From NCBI GenBank assembly GCA_903894565.1, contig CAITQP010000016.1:16927-80926 (forward strand): 64,000 nucleotides of DNA, written 5' to 3'. This document shows, one piece after another, positions 4,130-57,928 of the stretch (the first letter of the stretch is position 1; each line of letters begins with the position of its first letter). The position numbers and the translations under genes are program-made. This DNA comes from an uncultured bacterium. Its GTDB lineage: Bacteria > Patescibacteriota > Minisyncoccia > Phycocordibacterales > UBA9973. The notes under the pieces were generated by a model that worked only from the letters and a program-made list of their open reading frames with translations, was not told the DNA's origin and did no database searches.

Positions 4130-4750
4130 ATGAACATAATCTATGCCGTAGTAGGCCTGTGTGTGCTGTGGTCGATTTGGGGACTCGTTTCTTCGCGTGT
4201 GCCGAAGACTCCTTACTCCGTGCTTGAATCGAAGCATGGGTATGAGGTGCGACTCTATCCCGCGCATATTGTGGCACAGACCACAGTGAAGGGTTCGTAT
4301 GACATGGCGCTCAATCAGGGCTTCCGCATTGTGGCCGGATATATTTTTGGTGGCAATACGAAGAAGGAGAGTATCTCCATGACGTCACCTGTGGTAGAAA
4401 AAAGCGCACAGTCAGAATCCATCGCGATGACGTCTCCGGTCGTCGCGACCATAGAAGGCGAGTCGCACACCATCGCATTCGGTATGCCACAATCGTACAC
4501 GCTCGAAACGCTTCCGACACCGACTGATCCACGCGTCACGATCGCAACAATTCCTGAAAAGAAAATGGCCGTCATCCGATTCAGTTGGATGCGTACTCCT
4601 GAGCGTGTGCAGTCACAAAAACAAACTTTGCTCGATGCACTCGCCAAAGACAATGTCACCGTCGTCGGATCACCAGAATACGCGGGCTACAATGCTCCGT
4701 GGACTCCGCCATGGATGACGCGTCATGAAGTGCTCGTCGAAATCAAATAA
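4130..4750 (+). CDS. SOUL/HBP heme-binding family protein with N-terminal TM anchor
   Basis: YEVR-Y, duplicated MTSPV motifs, FGMP. Typical SOUL domain architecture. Confidence 0.7.
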   Translation: MNIIYAVVGLCVLWSIWGLVSSRVPKTPYSVLESKHGYEVRLYPAHIVAQTTVKGSYDMALNQGFRIVAGYIFGGNTKKESISMTSPVVEKSAQSESIAMTSPVVATIEGESHTIAFGMPQSYTLETLPTPTDPRVTIATIPEKKMAVIRFSWMRTPERVQSQKQTLLDALAKDNVTVVGSPEYAGYNAPWTPPWMTRHEVLVEIK

Positions 4751-6196: not shown

Positions 6197-6976
6197 ATGA
6201 AATCCGCGTGTCTTGATTTCGTCGTGTTTATACAGAAAGAAGCGCGAGCCTGTCTCTTTGCAGGCTCGTTTCTTTTTCTTATTTTCATTTCAAAGTACAT
6301 TCATGTGTTTGGGCTCGCGCGATATGATTTCCTTTTTCTCGCGGCAGTTCTGATTCAAATTCTGATGCTCGTGTTCAAACTTGAGACCAAGGATGAGGCG
6401 AAGACGATCGTACTTTTTCACGTGATCGGATTCGTGCTTGAAGTGTACAAGACGAGTCCAATGATTGGCTCGTGGTCATATCCAGAAGCCGGATTTTTTA
6501 AACTATGGAATGTGCCACTCTACAGCGGATTTATGTATGCGTCGATCGGAAGCTATATCGCGCACGCGTGGAAAGGCCTAGAACTGCGGCTCATCAACCC
6601 GCCTCCATATTGGTACAGCGTCGTCGTGTGTGTCTGTATTTATCTCAATTTTTTTACAAACCATTTCGTGTGGGATTTTCGTCCGATCCTCATTCTCGCC
6701 GTATTTGCGCTCTATTGGAAAACACGCGTCGAATTCACACCGCGCACGAAGGTATATTCCATGCCACTGGTGCTCAGTTTTGTATTGACGGCGTTCTTTG
6801 TATGGATTGCTGAGAACATCGGAACATTCTATGGCGCGTGGCAATATCCATCGCAGATCCATGCGTGGACTGTCGTCTCGATGCAAAAAATCACGTCATG
6901 GTTTCTGATGGTCATCATTAGTTTCATCATTGTGGCGTACTTGAAACACATAAAAGTAAAGCGAACAGAATCGTAA
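6197..6976 (+). CDS. integral membrane protein (polytopic; possibly DUF817-like)
   Basis: Six or more hydrophobic helices. Start moved to internal ATG at 6197 to avoid overlap. Confidence 0.5.
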   Translation: MKSACLDFVVFIQKEARACLFAGSFLFLIFISKYIHVFGLARYDFLFLAAVLIQILMLVFKLETKDEAKTIVLFHVIGFVLEVYKTSPMIGSWSYPEAGFFKLWNVPLYSGFMYASIGSYIAHAWKGLELRLINPPPYWYSVVVCVCIYLNFFTNHFVWDFRPILILAVFALYWKTRVEFTPRTKVYSMPLVLSFVLTAFFVWIAENIGTFYGAWQYPSQIHAWTVVSMQKITSWFLMVIISFIIVAYLKHIKVKRTES

Positions 6977-19571: not shown

Positions 19572-20435
19572 TTATTTAATCGCAAACGCAAACGGTTTAA
19601 AACAAAATTGTGATCCAACGGGAATATGTGCTGGCGTGTCCTTGTAATTTCTTTTAAAGAATCGAAGTCGGTTTACTTCACGAGTCAGCCCAAGACAAAA
19701 TTCTTTACCATTATTATTTATATACAGAAGACACGTGTCATCAATATTCTCGAGATTGCCTGCTATGACCATCTTTTTAAGGATCTCGAGTCCTTCGTAA
19801 TACGACCAATCATGGTAAATTGCAAAATTTGAAGCTTCCTCTAATAGTGACCATTCTCCAATGGAGTTTCTCTTTTTACATGCGTAAGTCTGTACTTGAA
19901 GGATTGCGCTTTCTCCTATAATCGTTTCAATTGGAACGATTTGTCCGACTTTGTACGTTCCATCTAAGTCGCCGATGTCAATTTTGGAAGCTCTTCCCAT
20001 TGAAGATTCGTATTCTGCGAGATCCGCCATGTATTCATGAAGACCATTTTCGCTAAAAGTAATATCTCTCGCAGGGATTTCAATTGAAGAAATAACTGTT
20101 TTTTCAATTGAAAGGAACTCTCCACAAAAAATAAAATCAGCATAGAATTTTCTAATCGAGATTAAGAGATTATCTGTAATGAGGTAGTCGTATTTGATTA
20201 CAAGATTACGCATACTCTGTAAATGTTTATTTAATCCATTACCCATGAATCGACTGGGGTCAGTTGATTCGTAGAAGTTGAAATAGATTAAAAAATAATC
20301 AAGTAGGAGATTTATACTAATTCTGCTTGGTTCTGTGTCGGGGTGTTCCTCGAGTAGGTCAAGTGACGAGATGAATGTAACAATAGGAAACTCTTTATTT
20401 GTTTCCTCGTTTAAAATTGCTGGCTGATTTCGCAT
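19572..20435 (-). CDS. hypothetical protein, AT-rich orphan
   Basis: 287-aa ORF with markedly lower GC than neighbours. No known domain. Confidence 0.5.
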   Translation of the reverse strand: MRNQPAILNEETNKEFPIVTFISSLDLLEEHPDTEPSRISINLLLDYFLIYFNFYESTDPSRFMGNGLNKHLQSMRNLVIKYDYLITDNLLISIRKFYADFIFCGEFLSIEKTVISSIEIPARDITFSENGLHEYMADLAEYESSMGRASKIDIGDLDGTYKVGQIVPIETIIGESAILQVQTYACKKRNSIGEWSLLEEASNFAIYHDWSYYEGLEILKKMVIAGNLENIDDTCLLYINNNGKEFCLGLTREVNRLRFFKRNYKDTPAHIPVGSQFCFKPFAFAIK

Positions 20436-50939: not shown

Positions 50940-50962
50940 TAGCCTCGGGTATCGTCGTGTAT

Positions 50963-50991
50963 TGACTATTTTCTATTATACGTGTTATAAT
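50963..50991 (+). promoter_or_regulatory. Near-consensus sigma70 promoter (TTGACT-N17-TATAAT)
   Basis: -35 at 50963..50968, -10 at 50986..50991, about 35 nt upstream of the 51027 ORF. Confidence 0.5.
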
Positions 50992-51026
50992 ATAAATAAT
51001 ATTCACGGGCACAGGCCTTTAAAAAT

Positions 51027-51299
51027 TTGGACATGAAAAAATTAACCATTTTTGCCTTATTAAGTGTAGGCACAAGTTGCTATGGTCAAGAAATATTAAA
51101 CGCAACGAAAGTAACTGATACAGTCTCAGTCGCTAAGGTGAGCGATTCGATGAGAATAGTGAACTATCAAAATGAAATAAAAAAGCTGAAAGCTCAAATC
51201 AATCAGAATGAGAAAACAATCAAGGCTCTTTTGATTCAAAAATCAGGCTTGCAATATCAGATTAGGAATCAGCCTAGTACACAACATTACGGGAGGTAG
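51027..51299 (+). CDS. small secreted coiled-coil protein
   Basis: Signal peptide then heptad-repeat region. Confidence 0.45.
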   Translation: MDMKKLTIFALLSVGTSCYGQEILNATKVTDTVSVAKVSDSMRIVNYQNEIKKLKAQINQNEKTIKALLIQKSGLQYQIRNQPSTQHYGR

Positions 51300-51375
51300 A
51301 TGTTCTAACAATCTCTGAACAATAAAAGCGCTGGAATAAAACCAGTGCTTTTTGTTTGTACAGTACAGAACGAAG

Positions 51376-51951
51376 TTAAAACATTCGTTGTCTATTTCTG
51401 CCGAGAAGTATTGTGAGCCCAATTCCGTAATTCATCACACAAATCCAAAGCGGGAAGATGATGAGTGAGAAGTTGAGTGTGCCGACAGCAAACGCTCCGA
51501 GTAGTCCGCCTGTACCACATATCATATATGCGCTGAATGTTTCGGTGCTTGGTTCTTTGTATGTTTTGATGACGGTGAGCATGCTTGCGAGCATATCAAT
51601 CGCGATGGTGATCACAATCGCGAAGAGTGGTTCGTTGGTCAGATACCAGAGCACGAGCCCGACGCCTGAAGCAACGAGCGCGAAGATATCGAGTCGAGAA
51701 GCACCACCCATGCCGTATTTGATAGAGAGTGCAAAAATGATGATGACGATGAGACAATCGATACCGGTTGTGATGAGTGACCATGTGCCACCTTTGGCAA
51801 ACTGAGCAAAGAAGGCGATCGTGAGGAGTACACTCCAGATGAACCATGTTGCGCGTTCTGGCTTCGTCTTAAGGCGAAAAATGTCGCTAATATACGGCAC
51901 GGCTGAAATCGTGATGAGGAGGCCCGAGGCGTAGCCGAGGAGTTCTTGCAT
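51376..51951 (-). CDS. hypothetical polytopic membrane protein
   Basis: 191 aa, six hydrophobic helices. Confidence 0.5.
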   Translation of the reverse strand: MQELLGYASGLLITISAVPYISDIFRLKTKPERATWFIWSVLLTIAFFAQFAKGGTWSLITTGIDCLIVIIIFALSIKYGMGGASRLDIFALVASGVGLVLWYLTNEPLFAIVITIAIDMLASMLTVIKTYKEPSTETFSAYMICGTGGLLGAFAVGTLNFSLIIFPLWICVMNYGIGLTILLGRNRQRMF

Positions 51952-52275
51952 AAGAATCTCAGTATACCAGGCATCTATTTGCTTGTCTTTACAAGAGGAT
52001 TACTTTGACATTTAGATACAATATCTTTGTAAATGGAAGTTTTTATGTAGAAACCCAAAAATACGCAAAGTGCATTGGGGTCATAGGTTCATTTAGCATG
52101 AACCAAAAAAATGAAATTGTACTTGCATCCAAATGGCTCGCAGGTACACGTGCGTACGCCCTAGAGGGTTATTATTACGCACGGGAACCTATATCATTAT
52201 ATGAAGTACACAGCATTCGCTTGTCTTTTTGTGTAAAAATGATTTCTGTTGTAGTCTAATCAAAACAATTGAAAA

Positions 52276-52668
52276 TTGATTAATCTGAAAGATTCTTCGA
52301 CTTGGCAATTGGTTCGTTTTGGATTGGTCGGACTTTCCGGCATTCTTTTGTATTATGGAATTTTATTTACACTAACTCAGTACTTTCACTTTTGGTATCT
52401 TTTGTCTGCGGTCATCGCGTACTGTATTTGTTTTGTCTGGAATTTTTTCTTACAAAAATTCTGGGCATTTAAAAATAAAGATCAAAAAAAGATTAAACGC
52501 CAAATGTTTTGGTACTCGGTAATGTATATAGCATTTTTTATTACAAATACTGTTGCGCTCTATGTGCTGGTGGATATGATTCACCTTTGGTACATATATG
52601 CTCAAATTATACTCACGGTTGTACTGAGTATAATTAGTTATTTTTCAACCAAACGAATTTTTGCCTAA
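52276..52668 (+). CDS. GtrA-family membrane protein (polysaccharide synthesis/flippase-associated)
   Basis: WQLVRFGLVGLSG...FFLQKFWAFKN; 4 TM. Confidence 0.65.
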   Translation: MINLKDSSTWQLVRFGLVGLSGILLYYGILFTLTQYFHFWYLLSAVIAYCICFVWNFFLQKFWAFKNKDQKKIKRQMFWYSVMYIAFFITNTVALYVLVDMIHLWYIYAQIILTVVLSIISYFSTKRIFA

Positions 52669-52695
52669 GGTCCTGCACGATGCAGGACCTTTTTG
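52668..52695 (+). terminator. Intrinsic terminator after gtrA-like gene
   Basis: AGGTCCTGCA-CGA-TGCAGGACCT hairpin plus TTTT. Confidence 0.65.
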
Positions 52696-52766
52696 TTATA
52701 TACTATTGACTTTTTTAAAATAAGTTATATTATGAATTTCATAAATTCATTCAAACTACATCGCAT

Positions 52767-53036
52767 ATGGAATTAGAAGATACTGTACCGGTTTCCACCG
52801 ACGACTACGTTTTACTTGGAAAACTTTTTGTAATGCTTACGGCTCGTAATGGGATGCCGTTTCCTGCAGAAATCCTGACTAAAAAGAAAAAAGAAATTGC
52901 GAGGAAGTTGAGTATAGACGATGGCAAAGTCGTAGCGTTGTACCAACTATTATTTACGTTGTCGGTGCAACTCCCACTGACAGCTGAGATTCAAAACCCA
53001 ATCGGTTTTGATCAGCATAAAAAAAGAGAGACATAA
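52767..53036 (+). CDS. small hypothetical protein (cassette 1)
   Basis: 89 aa. Own TTGACT promoter-like element upstream and hairpin terminator downstream. Confidence 0.4.
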   Translation: MELEDTVPVSTDDYVLLGKLFVMLTARNGMPFPAEILTKKKKEIARKLSIDDGKVVALYQLLFTLSVQLPLTAEIQNPIGFDQHKKRET

Positions 53037-53040
53037 CTCA

Positions 53041-53079
53041 AAAAGGAACAGAAGGGAACATACCCGCTGTTCCTTTTTT
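53041..53079 (+). terminator. Intrinsic terminator T1 (GGAACAG...CTGTTCC family)
   Basis: AAAAGGAACAGAAGGGAACATACCCGCTGTTCCTTTTTT. Paralogous to T2 at 53760. Confidence 0.6.
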
Positions 53080-53148
53080 GTATTTGACACTTTTGTATTT
53101 TATGATATATTAACAAACAAATAGTTTGTTGAAAAAAACGAATTTGAG

Positions 53149-53195
53149 AGCTTTGTTTAAATCCCAGAGACGCCCTAATCTATGGCCTTTGTGGG
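53149..53195 (+). promoter_or_regulatory. Perfect 11-bp inverted repeat (TTTAAATCCCA...TGGGATTTAAA) with 25-nt spacer upstream of the 53234 gene; adjacent AACAAAtagTTTGTT palindrome at 53106..53120
   Basis: Read directly from sequence. Possible operator or 5' UTR structure. Confidence 0.4.
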
Positions 53196-53233
53196 ATTTA
53201 AATAATATCTCTTAACTTTTAATACAAACAAAA

Positions 53234-53758
53234 ATGAAAAAAGTCGCCGTATTTCTTGTTGTGCTCCTGATGTTGGGGCTCGACTACACCGGAATTTATT
53301 ACGCATATCCGTATGCGATTCATCATGTTTCCGACCCAGTATTAAATTTCCTGGTCAGGGTTTTGATTGAATGTGTTGCCGTTCTCTGGGTCTGCCCAGT
53401 GACATCGTCTTTGTTCATCTATCTCACGCCGTATGGTAGAAGTTTTAATCTGAACCTCAGGCAAGAGCAGGAAAGAGAAAAAATCGCACGGAAAATATAT
53501 TTGTATACCGCGGCTTCTCTTATTGTAATTATAACCTGTCTGGTATTCCCGTGGACTTGGCATAATTTGGCCTACAGCACGAAAACTTTTATGGCGTCTT
53601 TCAATGAGAATACAGAGACCATTCAGTATCGTTTTTTACCTATTACGATCATTGGTTCGTCTGAAATGATGAAAACGTACGTCTCTCTTGTATGCAGTGG
53701 GATGCTTTCAGTAGCATTATTCGCTCGCGGTTACGTTAAGTTCAAAAAGAAACAATAA
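53234..53758 (+). CDS. hypothetical membrane protein (cassette 2)
   Basis: 174 aa, four hydrophobic helices. Confidence 0.45.
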   Translation: MKKVAVFLVVLLMLGLDYTGIYYAYPYAIHHVSDPVLNFLVRVLIECVAVLWVCPVTSSLFIYLTPYGRSFNLNLRQEQEREKIARKIYLYTAASLIVIITCLVFPWTWHNLAYSTKTFMASFNENTETIQYRFLPITIIGSSEMMKTYVSLVCSGMLSVALFARGYVKFKKKQ

Positions 53759-53759
53759 C

Positions 53760-53791
53760 AAAAGGAACAGGGACATACTCTGTTCCTTTTT
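53760..53791 (+). terminator. Intrinsic terminator T2 (paralog of T1)
   Basis: AAAAGGAACAGGGACATACTCTGTTCCTTTTT. Confidence 0.6.
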
Positions 53792-53880
53792 CTTTTGTGC
53801 AGTATTGTTGCAGGGGAAAAATTGACTAAATATATTTTGTGTACTATTTTAAATTTAAATCAAAAAACAAGGAGGTAAAA

Positions 53881-54189
53881 ATGGTTGGCACTGTAATCTT
53901 AATAAAAGAGTTAGACGCGTTGTACGGGGCATACCCTCACGTGAAGAATCTGTTCCCAGAGTTTCTTGAAAACTGGGGCTTGGTTGAAAAGACACCACAA
54001 TGGGCGAGGGCTAATATTGAGCGAGCGCTCAATGAACGTCAACCCGATTGGGGTGGGCTGAAAATCCTTTACCGAAAGGATTCAAATCTTAGGATTGCAG
54101 TTGTCCTTCGCGACCATCCAAATGCTGCATTCATCGATGCATGGGATGCGAGCACAGGGCAATCCTGCGAGGTTCCTGAGCTTGGGTAA
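53881..54189 (+). CDS. small hypothetical protein (cassette 3)
   Basis: Start at ATG after AAGGAGGT RBS. TTGACT promoter-like element at ~53808. Terminator 54209..54245. Confidence 0.45.
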   Translation: MVGTVILIKELDALYGAYPHVKNLFPEFLENWGLVEKTPQWARANIERALNERQPDWGGLKILYRKDSNLRIAVVLRDHPNAAFIDAWDASTGQSCEVPELG

Positions 54190-54273
54190 ATTCAGAAGGC
54201 AAAATTAAAAAGAGAAGTGGGAAACAAATTCCACTTCTCTTTTTGCATGATTAGATTGGACAACAAGTAACGT

Positions 54274-54301
54274 TGACAAAAACATATTTATATTTAAAAT
54301 A
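54274..54301 (+). promoter_or_regulatory. sigma70-like promoter copy A (TTGACA-N16-TAAAAT)
   Basis: 34-bp element 54271..54304 is 31/34 identical to 55521..55554. Confidence 0.5.
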
Positions 54302-54316
54302 TGCAAAACGATCATT

Positions 54317-54724
54317 ATGCCTATTATTCGTATTAGAAAGACAGCAAAACCTTGGGAGAAAGTAGAAGCCAACGATTCAAACGAAATGTACTTCTACCAA
54401 GCAATAGCCACCCGCTTTGAAAATGGTGACTGCCTTATCTGGGATGACAAACTCGGCTTAGAAGTTCGCCGACTCGTACCGGAGGAAGCCTTTGAGGATA
54501 CGGGTGACGGAAAACTTGAGTACGTCAATTTATTTTTCAATGGTATGGTGTCCACAAAAAGGAGGAATATAGGGGTTAAGCGCATCAAACTGAACCCGGC
54601 TATGGCTGATAAAGCCTTCCATCTCGACCTCGTTGAGCAACAAGGCTTTGCGCTTGAGCGATCAACCGTTTTTCCTGGCGAGTGCTATACGCTGAGATTT
54701 GTCGAAGAACTTCCTGAAGATTAA
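54317..54724 (+). CDS. small hypothetical protein (cassette 4)
   Basis: 135 aa. Hairpin terminator 54753..54776. Confidence 0.45.
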   Translation: MPIIRIRKTAKPWEKVEANDSNEMYFYQAIATRFENGDCLIWDDKLGLEVRRLVPEEAFEDTGDGKLEYVNLFFNGMVSTKRRNIGVKRIKLNPAMADKAFHLDLVEQQGFALERSTVFPGECYTLRFVEELPED

Positions 54725-54915
54725 GAAAAAATAGTATTAAACGCATTAAACACCCTCTATTCATTTAGGGGGTTTTGCTATTTATGTAGAATCTACGCGT
54801 GAGCCAGCTTGGTCGAAATTTGACAAATAAATTAATAATGTTAGATTAATTTATAAGAAGGCACAAAAAAGGGTAGGACCACGCCTGAGCAGTATTTCTC
54901 ATTAAAAATATTTTT

Positions 54916-55305
54916 ATGACTAGAAAATTAATTGCGCTCTGCGCCTTTTTGATTATTTGGGGCTCGACTTCAGCTCAAGATAAGATTTCTCAATCAAAGT
55001 TTAAGGAACTATTTGTGTTGATCAAAAAACACGGATTGGCCTCTACTGTGACAGCACACCTGACTGATACCACCATAGTACTTGGGAAATTGGACAGTGT
55101 TCGAATCTCGGCAGTTGAGGATACTGTCAAAAAGGATTCGACTCTAATTTTTAGACAAGACTTTATTATGGCAAGTATCTCTACTAAAAAAAACCGTGAC
55201 TTACTAGTAGAAGTCGAGGGTGGTTTATTTGGAAACATTCCATCGTATAAAGACGAACAGAGAGCGAAAAAAATGGTTACTCGTGTTTGTGCGATAATGA
55301 AGTAA
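54916..55305 (+). CDS. small secreted hypothetical protein (cassette 5)
   Basis: Signal peptide (LCAFLIIWGSTSA-QD), 129 aa. Confidence 0.45.
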   Translation: MTRKLIALCAFLIIWGSTSAQDKISQSKFKELFVLIKKHGLASTVTAHLTDTTIVLGKLDSVRISAVEDTVKKDSTLIFRQDFIMASISTKKNRDLLVEVEGGLFGNIPSYKDEQRAKKMVTRVCAIMK

Positions 55306-55431
55306 GGCAAAAACTAAAATAAACTATGTTGTACTTTAATTGATTTAATAATCATCACTGATATTTTTTTTCAGGGTGGTTATTTTTTTTGCTTAGAATG
55401 AATGGAAGGAAAATAATTTTTTTAAAAAAAC

Positions 55432-55473
55432 TGTGACCCACTGTAGCCGAAACTGGAACCTGATTCATACGCA
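55432..55473 (+). repeat. 42-bp direct repeat, copy 1 (TGTGACCCACTGTAGCCGAAACTGGAACCTGATTCATACGCA)
   Basis: 36/42 identical to copy 2 at 56075..56116. Five of six differences are C/T transitions. Confidence 0.7.
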
Positions 55474-55524
55474 GGTCAAGGACTTAGTGTCGTGACGCCA
55501 AGCTGTTGAGCCTAAATGATAATG

Positions 55525-55552
55525 TTGACAAAAATATATTTATATTTATAAT
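55525..55552 (+). promoter_or_regulatory. sigma70 consensus promoter copy B (TTGACA-N16-TATAAT)
   Basis: Duplicate of the 54271..54304 element, with a consensus -10. Confidence 0.55.
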
Positions 55553-55583
55553 ATAAAAAACAATCAAATTCAAACTGGAAAAC

Positions 55584-56030
55584 ATGAAGAACGACAACAA
55601 GTTATCTCTTTCTGAAATGATTGAGAACAGTACCATAGACGGGGCTTTTCATTTAGATACAGTCCCTGGAATAAACTCAATAGATGGTCTGAATAAAACA
55701 TTCCTGATGTTTTATGAGTATCCGAATCGGAGACAAATATTTATGGATCTCCTTTCCAAATCTGAGTGGGGTGGTTCCACTTTAATTTCCACGCTTAATC
55801 GCCCGAGTCTTCTCAGTGCACTTAGGTTTGGCGGAGTAGATTATTTAGTACAAGGCAAAACGTATATGGTGCCGAACAATTTGTTTACGGATATTAATTC
55901 CATAAACAGAACCATTGCAAAAAAATGGAAAGGTAAAATATATTTTTTTGACGATGTGCAGGATGAAGCAAACTCAATTATTCATGTTAGAGATTTAAAA
56001 TTGCTGCATGGAAAATTGCCGACAAATTAA
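55584..56030 (+). CDS. small hypothetical protein (cassette 6), flanked by 42-bp direct repeats
   Basis: 148 aa. Shares a short AFHLD-V motif with the 54317 gene product (possibly chance). Confidence 0.45.
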   Translation: MKNDNKLSLSEMIENSTIDGAFHLDTVPGINSIDGLNKTFLMFYEYPNRRQIFMDLLSKSEWGGSTLISTLNRPSLLSALRFGGVDYLVQGKTYMVPNNLFTDINSINRTIAKKWKGKIYFFDDVQDEANSIIHVRDLKLLHGKLPTN

Positions 56031-56074
56031 ACAGAACTACGGGGGACAAGAGGAAACTTTTGTTCCTTTTGTTT

Positions 56075-56116
56075 TTATAAAATTTGTGACCCATTGTAGC
56101 CGAAATTGGAATCAGA
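56075..56116 (+). repeat. 42-bp direct repeat, copy 2
   Basis: TGTGACCCATTGTAGCCGAAATTGGAATCAGATTTATATGCA. Confidence 0.7.
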
Positions 56117-56130
56117 TTTATATGCAATGT

Positions 56131-56167
56131 AATGATTTTTAAATAAAAATAAACCCGAGATTTCTCG
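56131..56167. terminator. Bidirectional intrinsic terminator
   Basis: ACCCGAGA-TT-TCTCGGGT hairpin flanked by an A-tract and a T-tract, between convergent genes. Confidence 0.65.
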
Positions 56168-56198
56168 GGTTTATTTCAAATAATTTTTAATTGATGAA

Positions 56199-56909
56199 CT
56201 AACGGTAACTTAATGTCTTGAAACTTTGCAATGGAAATGTGTTTTTTCCTGTAAGATCTACCAACTGATAGTAATACATTTTTCCTGGCAGTAAGTTATT
56301 CATGCCTCCTATCCCTTGATGAAACCCCTGAATATCTCCCGGGATGAGCTGACAGTTCAAGAGGAATGCCAAATTATCGGGGTCCGTACCAAATTTGACG
56401 CCCGCAATAAGATTAACCCCAGTTGCATCGCCGTTGTAAACACACATAACGCTCGCTGATGTTTGAGTAATGTCCTGAGCAACAATTCTCATTGTTTTGA
56501 AAACTATGTTTTCAATAGCTGCTTTAGCGGTGGTTAACTGGAGTGTATCTGAAGAAGTAATAATTTTGTTACCCTTTTCATTTACAACCCAGAAGTAGTA
56601 TTCCTTACCTGGCAGCATACCGTATAAATTTGCCTGGTACACGTTCGGAGGCATACCATTGTTCCACATGTTAGGGTTGGTACTGGTGTTGTATGTCATA
56701 GTCCATACCCCACGTTGTGTACCAGCATAAATAACAGTGGAACTGCCTTCCTCAACAGGGAGATTGTAAACAATTTGTATCTCGGCTTGTGTGCCTGAGA
56801 CCCTCCCGATTGCTACAGAGATTTTCTGGGCGCTTACTTTTGCTGAGCAAAAGAAGGACATCAATAATAGTGCTGTGGCGTACAGCTTAGCCGTCATGTT
56901 GTATTTCAT
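56199..56909 (-). CDS. secreted protein with two fibronectin type III-like domains
   Basis: Signal peptide. Two ~100-aa repeats each ending LPGKEYYFWVV / LLPGKMYYYQLV. Confidence 0.5.
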   Translation of the reverse strand: MKYNMTAKLYATALLLMSFFCSAKVSAQKISVAIGRVSGTQAEIQIVYNLPVEEGSSTVIYAGTQRGVWTMTYNTSTNPNMWNNGMPPNVYQANLYGMLPGKEYYFWVVNEKGNKIITSSDTLQLTTAKAAIENIVFKTMRIVAQDITQTSASVMCVYNGDATGVNLIAGVKFGTDPDNLAFLLNCQLIPGDIQGFHQGIGGMNNLLPGKMYYYQLVDLTGKNTFPLQSFKTLSYR

Positions 56910-57044
56910 AATCTAATTGTTAATGAGCCCCCTTGATTTAATGAACCTCTTCAATTACCACTATGGTCACTGAAGAGGCTCATTAAAAACACGAAAAACG
57001 ATTCTTTTTCATACTACAATAAATCCATAAATAGTCAAATTTTG

Positions 57045-57116
57045 TGACTCTACGGGGAATCGAACCCCGATTACTGCCTTGAGAAGGCGGTGTCCTAACC
57101 GTTAGACGATAGAGCC
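57045..57116 (-). tRNA. tRNA-Glu (anticodon CTC)
   Basis: Manual fold on minus strand: acceptor GGCTCTA/TAGAGTC, D-loop AACGGTTA, anticodon loop TTCTCAA, T-arm GGGG-TTCGATT-CCCC. One C.A mismatch in anticodon stem. No CCA encoded. Confidence 0.7.
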
Positions 57117-57472: not shown

Positions 57473-57527
57473 CCAGAAATCATGTATGCTAAAGGCACCC
57501 TTCGGGGTGTTTTTTGCTATTCGCTTG

Positions 57528-57602
57528 CCCTTGTAGTTCAATGGATAGAACTGTCGCGTCCTAAGCGATCAATGTCGGTCCGATTCCGGCCGAGGGCACC
57601 AT
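57528..57602 (+). tRNA. tRNA-Arg (anticodon CCT), CCA encoded
   Basis: Acceptor GCCCTTG/CGAGGGC, D-arm GTTC-AATGGATA-GAAC, anticodon stem GTCGC/GCGAT, loop GTCCTAA, T-arm GTCGG-TCCGATT-CCGGC. Confidence 0.75.
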
Positions 57603-57637
57603 TTGAGAATCAAGCACAATTGTGTTACAGTACGTGC

Positions 57638-57928
57638 ATGGACGCCGATGACAAGAAAAAACTCGATCGCATACTCGAACTTGCGGAAGAGAACAATCAA
57701 TACATTCGGAAAGTCCGCACTTCACAAAAGACGTCTCAAATGTTTAAGGCGATCTATTGGGTTGTGATCATCGTCTTTGTACTTGGTGGGTTTTATTACA
57801 TACAACCATACTTCAAGACGCTCACAGGTATCTATTCTGCAACGACAGGGAAGTCAGCGAATTTTCAATTCTCTGATACAGCCCAGATTCAGAATCTTCT
57901 CGAACAGTTCAAAGGTCAAATCAAATAG
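57638..57928 (+). CDS. small membrane protein, hypothetical
   Basis: Start trimmed to ATG after tRNA-Arg. One TM. Confidence 0.4.
   Translation: MDADDKKKLDRILELAEENNQYIRKVRTSQKTSQMFKAIYWVVIIVFVLGGFYYIQPYFKTLTGIYSATTGKSANFQFSDTAQIQNLLEQFKGQIK

Follow-up and report, generated by a model that had tools for sequence, protein, structure and literature searches.

The repeat pair and the island beside tRNA-Glu

The window considered here is a stretch of 64,000 nucleotides from contig CAITQP010000016.1 of an uncultured bacterium of the Patescibacteriota, and the feature under study is a pair of direct repeats, each of 42 nt and both on the plus strand, located at 55432–55473 (copy 1, W1) and 56085–56126 (copy 2, W2) to either side of a gene for a protein of 148 amino acids (aa). 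The two copies read exactly as given in the original prediction, made from the letters alone, and direct comparison confirmed its count that six of the 42 positions differ, five by C in copy 1 against T in copy 2 and one by T against A. Its end point for copy 2 (56116) is corrected here to 56126, and the promoter-and-gene unit that it placed between the copies is indeed present, albeit not with the length of 643 bp assigned to it: the copies are spaced 653 nt from start to start, with 611 nt of DNA between them. Ungapped similarity extends over 55 nt (55419–55473 against 56072–56126, 84% identity), the upstream extension to 55419/56072 adding a sixth C/T difference and two A/T differences, and weaker similarity continues downstream as far as ~55495/56142. 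A 29-nt degenerate core allowed up to three mismatches occurred at two sites in the window, where shuffled sequences gave an expectation of 0.00; a sensitive self-comparison of the surrounding island yielded no third copy, and these two are the only ones in ~74 kb of scaffold. The exact degenerate motif had no matches in the genome, metagenome or viral contig collections, while a looser scan of the viral contigs returned six, a number near a rough chance estimate, all of them coding-like and none with similarity downstream. When phages were searched with the region and plasmids with the motif, BLAST produced tRNA matches or noise only.

The DNA between the copies holds, on the plus strand, a sigma-70 promoter (55525–55552; TTGACA-16-TATAAT, 12/12), the 148-aa gene (55584–56030) and a hairpin terminator (56041–56068), the T-tail of which runs into the start of copy 2. 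Directly after copy 2 stands a perfect hairpin with 14-bp arms (56147–56176), probably a bidirectional terminator for the convergent gene of a 232/236-aa secreted protein (56199–56909, minus strand) with an FN3-like domain (Pur_ac_phosph_N), for which no close homologues were found. This is the sole gene between copy 2 and the gene for transfer RNA (tRNA)-Glu(CTC) at 57044–57116 on the minus strand, the presumptive integration target, which turns its 3′ end towards the repeats and closes a variable island of 6.1 kb (50940–57043) bounded on its other side by a murE-like gene. The GC content of the island is 0.36–0.38 (52–56 kb) against ~0.45 over most of the remaining window, and the window as a whole is a piece of chromosome, with ordinary housekeeping genes, from a metagenome-assembled Patescibacteria genome (ENA ERZ18638863, scaffold_88; identical to locus L001). 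The island itself consists of single-gene units of lineage-specific open reading frames (ORFs), each with its own promoter and terminator; most of the products gave no Pfam or PHROG match above threshold, the exceptions being a GtrA-family protein and the aforementioned 236-aa protein, and no paralogy was found among the island proteins.

That the island varies between genomes was apparent from comparison with relatives. L003, the nearest genome in the species collection, with a murE-like protein 96% identical to that of the window, is collinear with the window up to 50939 and again from 57042, with 2.4 kb of unrelated DNA between. Among strain-level relatives with an identical glutaredoxin (L084, L085, L087 and L090), similarity is lost exactly at 57044, and at the break these strains have a gene for a 561-aa large serine recombinase (LSR) beside tRNA-Glu. 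Because the breaks in similarity to these genomes (57042–57044) coincide with the 3′ end of tRNA-Glu, the island constitutes a variable region at a tRNA integration site.

No close relatives of the 148-aa protein were found, and a metagenome scan for relatives likewise found none. An exhaustive profile-free search recovered nine distant relatives (P0002–P0010), which make up a small family with the motif GWGGS, the invariant residues F40, L57, W62, G64, S65 and P74, and no Pfam match; the family domain also serves as the C-terminal domain of proteins of 374–453 aa, and the 148-aa protein is predicted to adopt a flavodoxin/CheY-like fold (pLDDT 83.7). The closest relatives in large protein collections are at most 54% identical, none with informative flanking DNA. 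The repeat element was not found on the short homologue contigs L094–L097 and L107, and no empty site of the 148-aa unit was found via the homologue contigs of either the 148-aa or the 232-aa protein. One family member, P0005 (34% identical), is located on contig L098 in a mobile element that encodes an LSR of 508 aa and a rolling-circle replication protein (Rep), directly after a copy of the repeat and a promoter, and just upstream of the gene pair of a cyclic oligonucleotide-based antiphage signalling system (CBASS).

Copies of the repeat at other tRNA-Glu loci

In L098 the repeat is 89 nt in length, direct, and present in three copies (La, Lb and Lc), each just upstream of a gene. It aligns in register with the window motif, and the consensus of the element reads GTGACcCA-N9-aAATTGGAAyC...TAAGG..TTTAG. 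A search of 1.5 Mb of loci identified two further pairs on the Patescibacteria contigs L014 and L025, both of which had been taken into the locus set for unrelated reasons, to give a total of nine copies (two each in the window, L014 and L025, and three in L098), all of them beside tRNA-Glu. A DNA model built without L098 recovered the L098 copies (E = 4.6e-5 and 1.5e-3), one built without L014 recovered L014b (E = 1.9e-4), and for one built without the window sequence the best match in the whole window was copy 2, in register. Pairwise alignments of the window copies with Lb and Lc were beaten by only 1–12 of 5000 shuffles.

A tRNA scan detected tRNA-Glu at every one of the four loci, always encoded on the opposite strand from the copies and with its 3′ end pointing towards them. 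In each locus the direct copies enclose 1–4 accessory genes, which in L098 code for a CBASS cyclase and an effector with one transmembrane segment together with the 148-aa homologue, and in L025 for a type II methylase and an MvaI/BcnI-type endonuclease, plus HNH and NERD proteins. An element backbone of ~5 kb was recognised in L098 and L025, consisting from the tRNA outward of an LSR of ~505 aa, a RepSA/G2P-like rolling-circle Rep and cargo; full-length identity is 53% between the LSRs (8344–9870 in L098; 12017–13528, 503 aa, in L025), and the two Reps share 62%.

The copies begin with the tRNA end and encode a recombinase tail

Comparison of the ORFs of the four loci established that translations across the tRNA genes match between loci, and that the LSR reading frames of both L098 and L025 overlap the tRNA 3′ end. 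The tRNA-Glu sequence beside the L098 copies reads TGGTGACCCTACGGGGAATCGAACC, and the reverse complement of the tRNA is matched by the starts of La (ATGACCCTACGGGGAAGGAATTGG, 15/17), Lc (ATGGTGACCC, 10/10) and, in the second locus, L025a (TTTGGTGACCC, 11/11); bases 55433–55441 of copy 1 in the window (GTGACCCAC) likewise correspond to the 3′ terminus of tRNA-Glu in reverse complement. The C-terminus of the L098 LSR, STMVTLRGIEPRLTA followed by a stop codon, includes GTG ACC CTA CGG GGA (VTLRG), which is the reverse complement of the tRNA end, and the frame in which it is read is that in which the copies are open.

In this frame copy 1 (55433–55495, plus strand, GTG to TGA) encodes VTHCSRNWNLIHTQVKDLVS and copy 2 (56086–56142, plus strand) encodes VTHCSRNWNQIYMQCNDF, and the L098 copies encode MTLRGRNWNRLIYCIRVFSEIH (La), VTQGGRNWNRFVYSIRVFREMY (Lb) and VTQGRRNWNRLVYSIRMFSEIH (Lc), each of these peptides ending at a stop codon. 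The frame is open in eight of the nine copies and starts with GTG or ATG in eight of nine, and the peptides follow the pattern V-T-x-x-x-x-N-W-N-x-[LIV]. In the window the promoter of the 148-aa gene sits downstream of the stop codon of copy 1, and in L098 the TGA stop of the tail lies inside the TTGACA −35 box; the order of tail, promoter and 148-aa-family gene is common to the window and L098 (Lc, promoter, P0005). No promoter or gene follows copy 2 on the plus strand.

If the attachment site of the element (attP) were inside the LSR gene, uninterrupted LSR genes should end in the repeat-encoded peptide, and this expectation was tested on the LSR family, which numbers 1445 proteins at E ≤ 1e-30, the one organism name given for it being Candidatus Nomurabacteria. 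The Resolvase and Recombinase domains of the family (plus Zn_ribbon_recom in some cases) identify the protein as a serine recombinase. Among the best 120 of the 1445, 86 have short tails translated from the T-arm and acceptor of a tRNA (for example ..LVTLRGIEPR.., ..LVTLQRIEL and ..LVTLPGIEPG..), and 15 have longer tails of the form ..LV[TA]-x3-4-[NSDE]WN-x-[IL].., such as those of P0062 (LVTHISANWNLLLRQIVGR, to be compared with VTHCSRNWNLIHTQVKDL of the window), P0038 (LVTLCLKNWNQIFLYIKNF) and P0124 (LVALVRKNWNRIVQHLQAW). A hidden Markov model (HMM) of the 15 database tails of this WN type alone was run against the six-frame translation of the window, L098, L014 and L025 (5055 peptides), and its top seven matches were exactly repeat copies: W2 (7e-6), W1 (1.9e-4), Lc (2.6e-4), Lb (4.5e-4), La (0.017), L025a (0.041) and L025b (0.12). 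None of 13 WN-tailed LSRs was on a contig longer than 20 kb (all were on contigs of 18 kb or less), as against 25 of 86 with tRNA-encoded tails (Fisher p = 0.035); several of the WN-tailed LSR contigs are 4–6 kb in length, near the 5.0 kb that separate Lc from the tRNA in L098, and these sizes are in keeping with a free form of the element. Viral scans with the Rep, with P0038 and with the LSR alignment detected distant relatives only, without the element.

Two further observations concern recombinase tails in this group. The 561-aa LSR of the strain-level relatives (L084 7084–8769; window 57046–57102), with 25% identity to the L098 type, likewise extends into tRNA-Glu, where the reverse complement of the tRNA, in another frame, encodes its 19 final residues; judged from these frames, a site inside the recombinase frame may be common among the tRNA-targeting LSRs of this group. 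The tails of the integrated type (P0012–P0131) fall into the classes ..RGIEPR.., ..PGIEPG.., ..QRIEL, ..RGVEPL.. and ..DPxGxEP.., a diversity which suggests that LSR subfamilies target different tRNA genes and that the class of a tail could predict its target.

Proposed origin of the repeat pair

The two repeats are quite probably attR-type junction relics, left by small integrative elements with the tRNA-Glu 3′ end as their target, and the 148-aa gene would be cargo of one of them. The comparison of LSR tails points to an attP within the 3′-terminal part of the LSR frame; what is said below of a circular intermediate, of the exact point of crossover and of the sequence of events is what we infer from the junctions. 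In its free form the element would be a circle of ~5 kb in which the LSR frame crosses attP, and the LSR would end in a tail of ~20–35 aa (..L-V-T-x3-4-[NSDE]-W-N-x-[IL]..). Recombination with an attachment site (attB) near the acceptor end of the tRNA gene would then split the LSR gene. Its body would stay beside the tRNA and gain a short tail from the tRNA reverse complement (..VTLRGIEPR..), the LVT codons of the element now supplying the last bases of the tRNA, while its final 20–35 codons would end up at the far junction (attR), joined there to the displaced 8–10 terminal nt of the tRNA and succeeded by the promoter of the cargo.

Applied to the window, this scheme would assign copy 1, with the promoter and the 148-aa gene, to the far end of one element, and copy 2 to the far end of another, closer to the tRNA, both elements having been degraded with loss of their LSR and Rep genes. 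A single LSR integration would generate only one junction of this kind, the other junction being the tRNA itself, and two copies thus imply either two events or a later duplication; the copies would differ through descent from two related LSR alleles. Of the readings offered in the original prediction, that of att-like remnants therefore holds in so far as the repeats appear to be recombinase junction relics by a tRNA gene, and fails in so far as they would not be the two ends of one insertion of the 148-aa gene.

Since only the free circular form would make the full-length integrase, the exchange of tails might in addition act as a state switch, the integrated form being altered in activity or directionality. 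This further step is put forward tentatively and is rather doubtful.

A number of results weigh against the proposed origin. No remnant of an LSR or Rep gene was found in the window, hence the link to LSR elements rests on homology with the other loci. The leave-out E value for W2 in the 1.5-Mb search was 0.97, and the shuffle p values of ~2e-4 to 2e-3 make the placement of the window copies in the DNA family weak when taken alone. What the window copies retain of the tRNA is short and diverged, reading GTGACCC against GTGACTC in the resident tRNA, with GTGAC.C in common. L014a has a stop at its third codon, and pooled codon-position counts of differences (9/5/12, p = 0.24) are not significantly periodic, with the consequence that the coding argument rests on the tail match. 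Finally, an LSR body was found upstream of none of the five internal junctions across the four loci. Such LSR-less internal junctions are not predicted by simple tandem integration followed by random deletion; possible routes to the arrays are the movement in trans of recombinase-less cassettes, or excision at an inner copy that leaves the outer cargo behind. On the former, the recombinase-less blocks between copies could be cargo cassettes moved in trans.

Alternative explanations

The layout of the window invites a simpler account, in which a 148-aa cassette was inserted or tandem-duplicated in a single local event that left a long target duplication or one attL/attR pair, since diverged by drift. 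The copies do bracket exactly one unit of promoter, gene and terminator, similarity stops fairly sharply on both sides, and the window holds no recombinase to argue otherwise. Such an event is nevertheless unlikely: each copy is a full-length member of a family that recurs next to tRNA-Glu at three other loci, the two encode the same stretch of the LSR tail, and integration by an LSR yields one such junction rather than two. The empty site that it would lead one to expect was not found among relatives of the 148-aa protein (at most 54% identical, without informative flanks), and a divergence of 16% between copies, in an island absent from relatives with ~90–95% identity in the flanks, fits copies that were already different on arrival. 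An equally improbable account takes the repeat for a regulatory or shuffling module, that is, an element upstream of a promoter that travels with its cargo by homology, as in the cassettes of T4-type phages discussed below, or as a cassette site of the integron kind. A sigma-70 promoter follows five of the nine copies, in four cases at 58–64 nt, direct copies delimit 1–4 accessory genes in all four loci, among them the two CBASS genes and, together with HNH and NERD genes, a type II restriction-modification system, and no LSR body lies upstream of any internal copy; the monocistronic units and a second repeated promoter region (D2, below) resemble the phage layout (PMC2839356, PMC4122927), and in its cassette-exchange version, also offered in the original prediction, the account is compatible with the arrays of sites without recombinase bodies that all four loci display. 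Association with a promoter, however, follows from the order of the element itself, in which the tail and its stop codon are succeeded by the cargo promoter; the two window copies stand at distances from the −35 box that differ by 27 nt, four copies lack a gene downstream, and the genes enclosed in L014 and L025 are read from the opposite strand. Moreover, the longest identical run between the window copies (~12 nt) is short for homologous exchange, the motif shows neither dyad symmetry nor an attC-like fold, and both the tRNA-derived start and the match to the LSR tail would be left unexplained.

The open frame admits of another interpretation, namely that each copy is a small independent gene of 18–22 codons for a functional peptide, and the frame open in eight of nine copies, the GTG or ATG at its start in eight of nine and the conserved peptide pattern are all in its favour. 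It is nonetheless very improbable, inasmuch as the copies have no Shine-Dalgarno sequence or promoter of their own and directly follow the terminator of the previous gene, the same peptide forms the C-terminal tail of a 500-aa recombinase, and tail length and sequence past NWN vary freely.

The original prediction had also raised the possibility of a small structured RNA, which the folding results contradict. Rfam gave no match to the motif at the gathering threshold or at E values up to 10, and the weak matches nearby were driven by the terminator at 56147–56176. Copy 1 folds no better than shuffled sequences on either strand (z-score +0.61); the z-score of −4.3 for the stretch with copy 2 is due largely to the adjacent terminator hairpin, the predicted fold also pairing part of the motif. 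The consensus structure of the nine copies (RNAalifold) contained zero pairs on both strands.

Several other candidates were considered and rejected. A dispersed repeat of the repetitive extragenic palindromic (REP) or miniature inverted-repeat transposable element (MITE) kind is at odds with two copies in ~74 kb, with nine in 1.5 Mb all by tRNA-Glu, and with a motif that is not palindromic; the occurrence at many unrelated intergenic sites that the original prediction had named as its counter-case was not observed in either data set. A target-site duplication was rejected as the identity of the repeat, and an integron attC site on the grounds that the motif has no inverted repeat and no consensus fold on either strand. 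The motif starts with TGT, and L085 has an rve transposase; a terminal inverted repeat of an IS3-type insertion sequence was dismissed because the copies are direct and unlike that end. For the called genes covering ~14300–64000 of the window, no recombinase Pfam domain was reported.

The C/T differences between the copies

The remaining alternative, strand-specific hypermutation of one copy by cytosine deamination or decay of methyl-cytosine, was suggested by the one-directional bias that the original prediction had remarked upon. As a count the bias is real: at all six transitions of the 55-nt alignment a C of copy 1 stands opposite a T of copy 2, the G/A class is absent, and five of the six changed C residues follow an A. 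Given the base composition, the probability of all six falling in one class is ~0.002, and a Fisher test of C-to-T against G-to-A gave p = 0.046, both figures being weakened by the pattern having been picked after it was seen.

Set against the reading frame, the differences lose this appearance of a mutational signature. Of the six differences within the 42 nt, three are silent, one in a His codon (CAC/CAT) and two in Asn codons (AAC/AAT in both), and three are replacements: CTG/CAG (Leu/Gln), CAT/TAT (His/Tyr) and ACG/ATG (Thr/Met). The first nine codons (VTHCSRNWN) of W1 and W2 contain three differences, all of them silent C/T changes at wobble positions. As C/T is the only silent change available to CAY and AAY codons, selection on the tail in a functional recombinase explains half of the pattern and its strand. 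The outgroup copies have T at positions 21 and 38, which indicates T-to-C change in copy 1, and mostly C at positions 27 and 34, which indicates C-to-T change in copy 2; the two other sites could not be directed. Hypermutation is the most remote of the explanations considered here, since two of its six sites, chosen post hoc, ran from T to C in copy 1, only two look like C-to-T in copy 2, and three are silent wobble changes of CAY or AAY. ACTG is not depleted in the window (observed/expected 1.03), and methylation-linked decay was rejected on the same ground. The pattern is not evidence of a directional mutational process and bears no deamination signature.

Other features of the loci

Elsewhere in the island, a second copy of the cargo promoter region (D2; 54268–54314, plus strand) extends over 47 nt with 87% identity to 55520–55566 and precedes a gene for a 135-aa protein, with no recognisable repeat copy ahead of it. 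The similarity between the promoters of the 135-aa and 148-aa genes reaches well past the −35 and −10 consensus, and at each of its six differences the first copy has G/C or A where the second has A/T. The stretch at ~54245–54262 (GCATGATTAG), after the preceding terminator, might be a third attachment relic. The 5′ leader of a 174-aa gene (53141–53218) contains a long imperfect palindrome, AAATCCCA...TGGGATTT, which matches its own reverse complement.

A second variable spot lies on the other side of tRNA-Glu at window position 57601, just after tRNA-Arg (57527–57601). L003 has at this point a 176-aa gene on the minus strand, and the GROS21 strains a 300-aa DUF3800 gene; both genes are absent from the window, and the extra DNA directly after tRNA-Arg amounts to about 0.7–1.0 kb in L003 (14296–14983) and the GROS21 strains (L084 9266–10290). 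A listed ORF at 57482–57928, also of 148 aa, overlaps tRNA-Arg, and comparison with a 96-aa ORF of L003 (starting MDADDKKKLDR) suggests that its true start is an internal Met downstream of the tRNA gene.

In L098, the CBASS cyclase gene ends at 6877–6904 in ..KTNWNQIVW and a stop codon, and over its final 21 nt it is similar to the AAATTGGAAyC block of the repeat, with 15/16 matches to copy 2 of the window. The DNA model gives this stretch no score and the cyclase profile covers the protein to its end, and the likeness may be due to chance. At 4385 and 5536 terminators are followed by TTTATTT-GTGA[GC]CC without the remainder of the repeat, and these sites may be heavily decayed copies. The segment 6940–7040, between the CBASS genes and Rep, is GC-rich and highly self-complementary in an element with otherwise 43% GC, and is a candidate replication origin. 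Immediately upstream of the first copy, 2105–2767 codes for a 220-aa protein with a domain similar to the C-terminal domain of the RNA polymerase alpha subunit (PF03118), the stand-alone occurrence of which represents an unusual use of this DNA-binding domain. L025 has just outside its outer copy a pair of 35-nt direct repeats (20234–20268 and 20359–20393), 94% identical and 125 nt apart.

Relation to known systems and significance

Genomic islands at tRNA genes are flanked by direct repeats that include the tRNA 3′ end (attL/attR). The present island conforms to this type in that it abuts a tRNA 3′ end, varies between strains and is replaced in relatives by DNA with a recombinase at the same tRNA, and in that its repeats start with the terminal bases of the tRNA, in tRNA orientation and on the 3′ side. 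It departs from the usual type in that most of each repeat is the split-off end of a recombinase gene, in that the recombinase is an LSR where the usual islands have a tyrosine integrase, and in that the window copies are relics without a recombinase. The composite staphylococcal cassette chromosome mec (SCCmec) islands consist of tandem cassettes between direct repeats recognised by the Ccr LSRs, some of them without ccr. By analogy, the cargo blocks described here would likewise be set between direct repeats of an LSR site by a conserved target gene, and include blocks without a recombinase; SCCmec, however, targets rlmH and has short repeats of the integration site, whereas here the target is a tRNA gene and the repeats are gene fragments.

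The 'suicidal' integrases of SSV-type archaeal viruses and plasmids have their attP inside the integrase gene, and self-disrupting recombinases of this type (SSV-type tyrosine integrases) occur only in archaea according to a review of 2021 (PMC8371274). The elements described here would resemble them in having the attachment site in the recombinase frame and one piece of the gene at each junction, as judged from sequence comparison. They differ in that the SSV-type tyrosine recombinase is split into two large parts, whereas the LSR would lose its last 20–35 codons only and gain a short tRNA-encoded tail; the working is similar, without membership of that class. Mycobacteriophage BPs and related phages carry attP within the repressor gene, and their immunity depends on integration (PMC4557955). 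There too a frame crosses attP and its C-terminus differs between the free and integrated states, but the gene affected codes for the repressor and the switch has been put to experimental test, whereas the gene here would be that of the recombinase itself, as known from sequence alone. The promoter/stem-loop (PeSL) cassettes of T4-type phages combine a promoter with a terminator and undergo homology-based recombination (PMC2839356, PMC4122927); they share with the island small lineage-specific genes in single units, repeated regulatory DNA between them and a hypervariable location; the repeat described here differs in lying upstream of the promoter, in being derived from a tRNA end and a recombinase tail, and in having identical runs of only ~12 bases. 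A limited search of the literature found no description of an attP crossed by an LSR frame.

In kind, the repeats are ordinary integration scars at a tRNA gene, and the unusual point is the location of the attachment site in the reading frame of the recombinase itself. They appear to belong to a widespread family of Patescibacteria elements in which the recombinase gene crosses attP. For the window the result is modest, namely that the repeat pair represents the scars of mobile elements by a tRNA integration site. Were the exchange of tails to act as a state switch, it would constitute a bacterial serine-recombinase counterpart of the 'suicidal' integrases, and, if it changes activity, a new coupling in bacteria of integration state to recombinase function that could also help in the choice of serine integrases for genome engineering. 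If the recombinase gene does cross attP, every integration would deposit at the far junction a piece of coding sequence that can be recognised. The resulting sequence marker, GTGACCC followed by a ..NWN.. tail, could help to trace earlier integrations and to delimit cargo blocks in Patescibacteria, a group whose mobile elements and defence islands have so far been charted only poorly.

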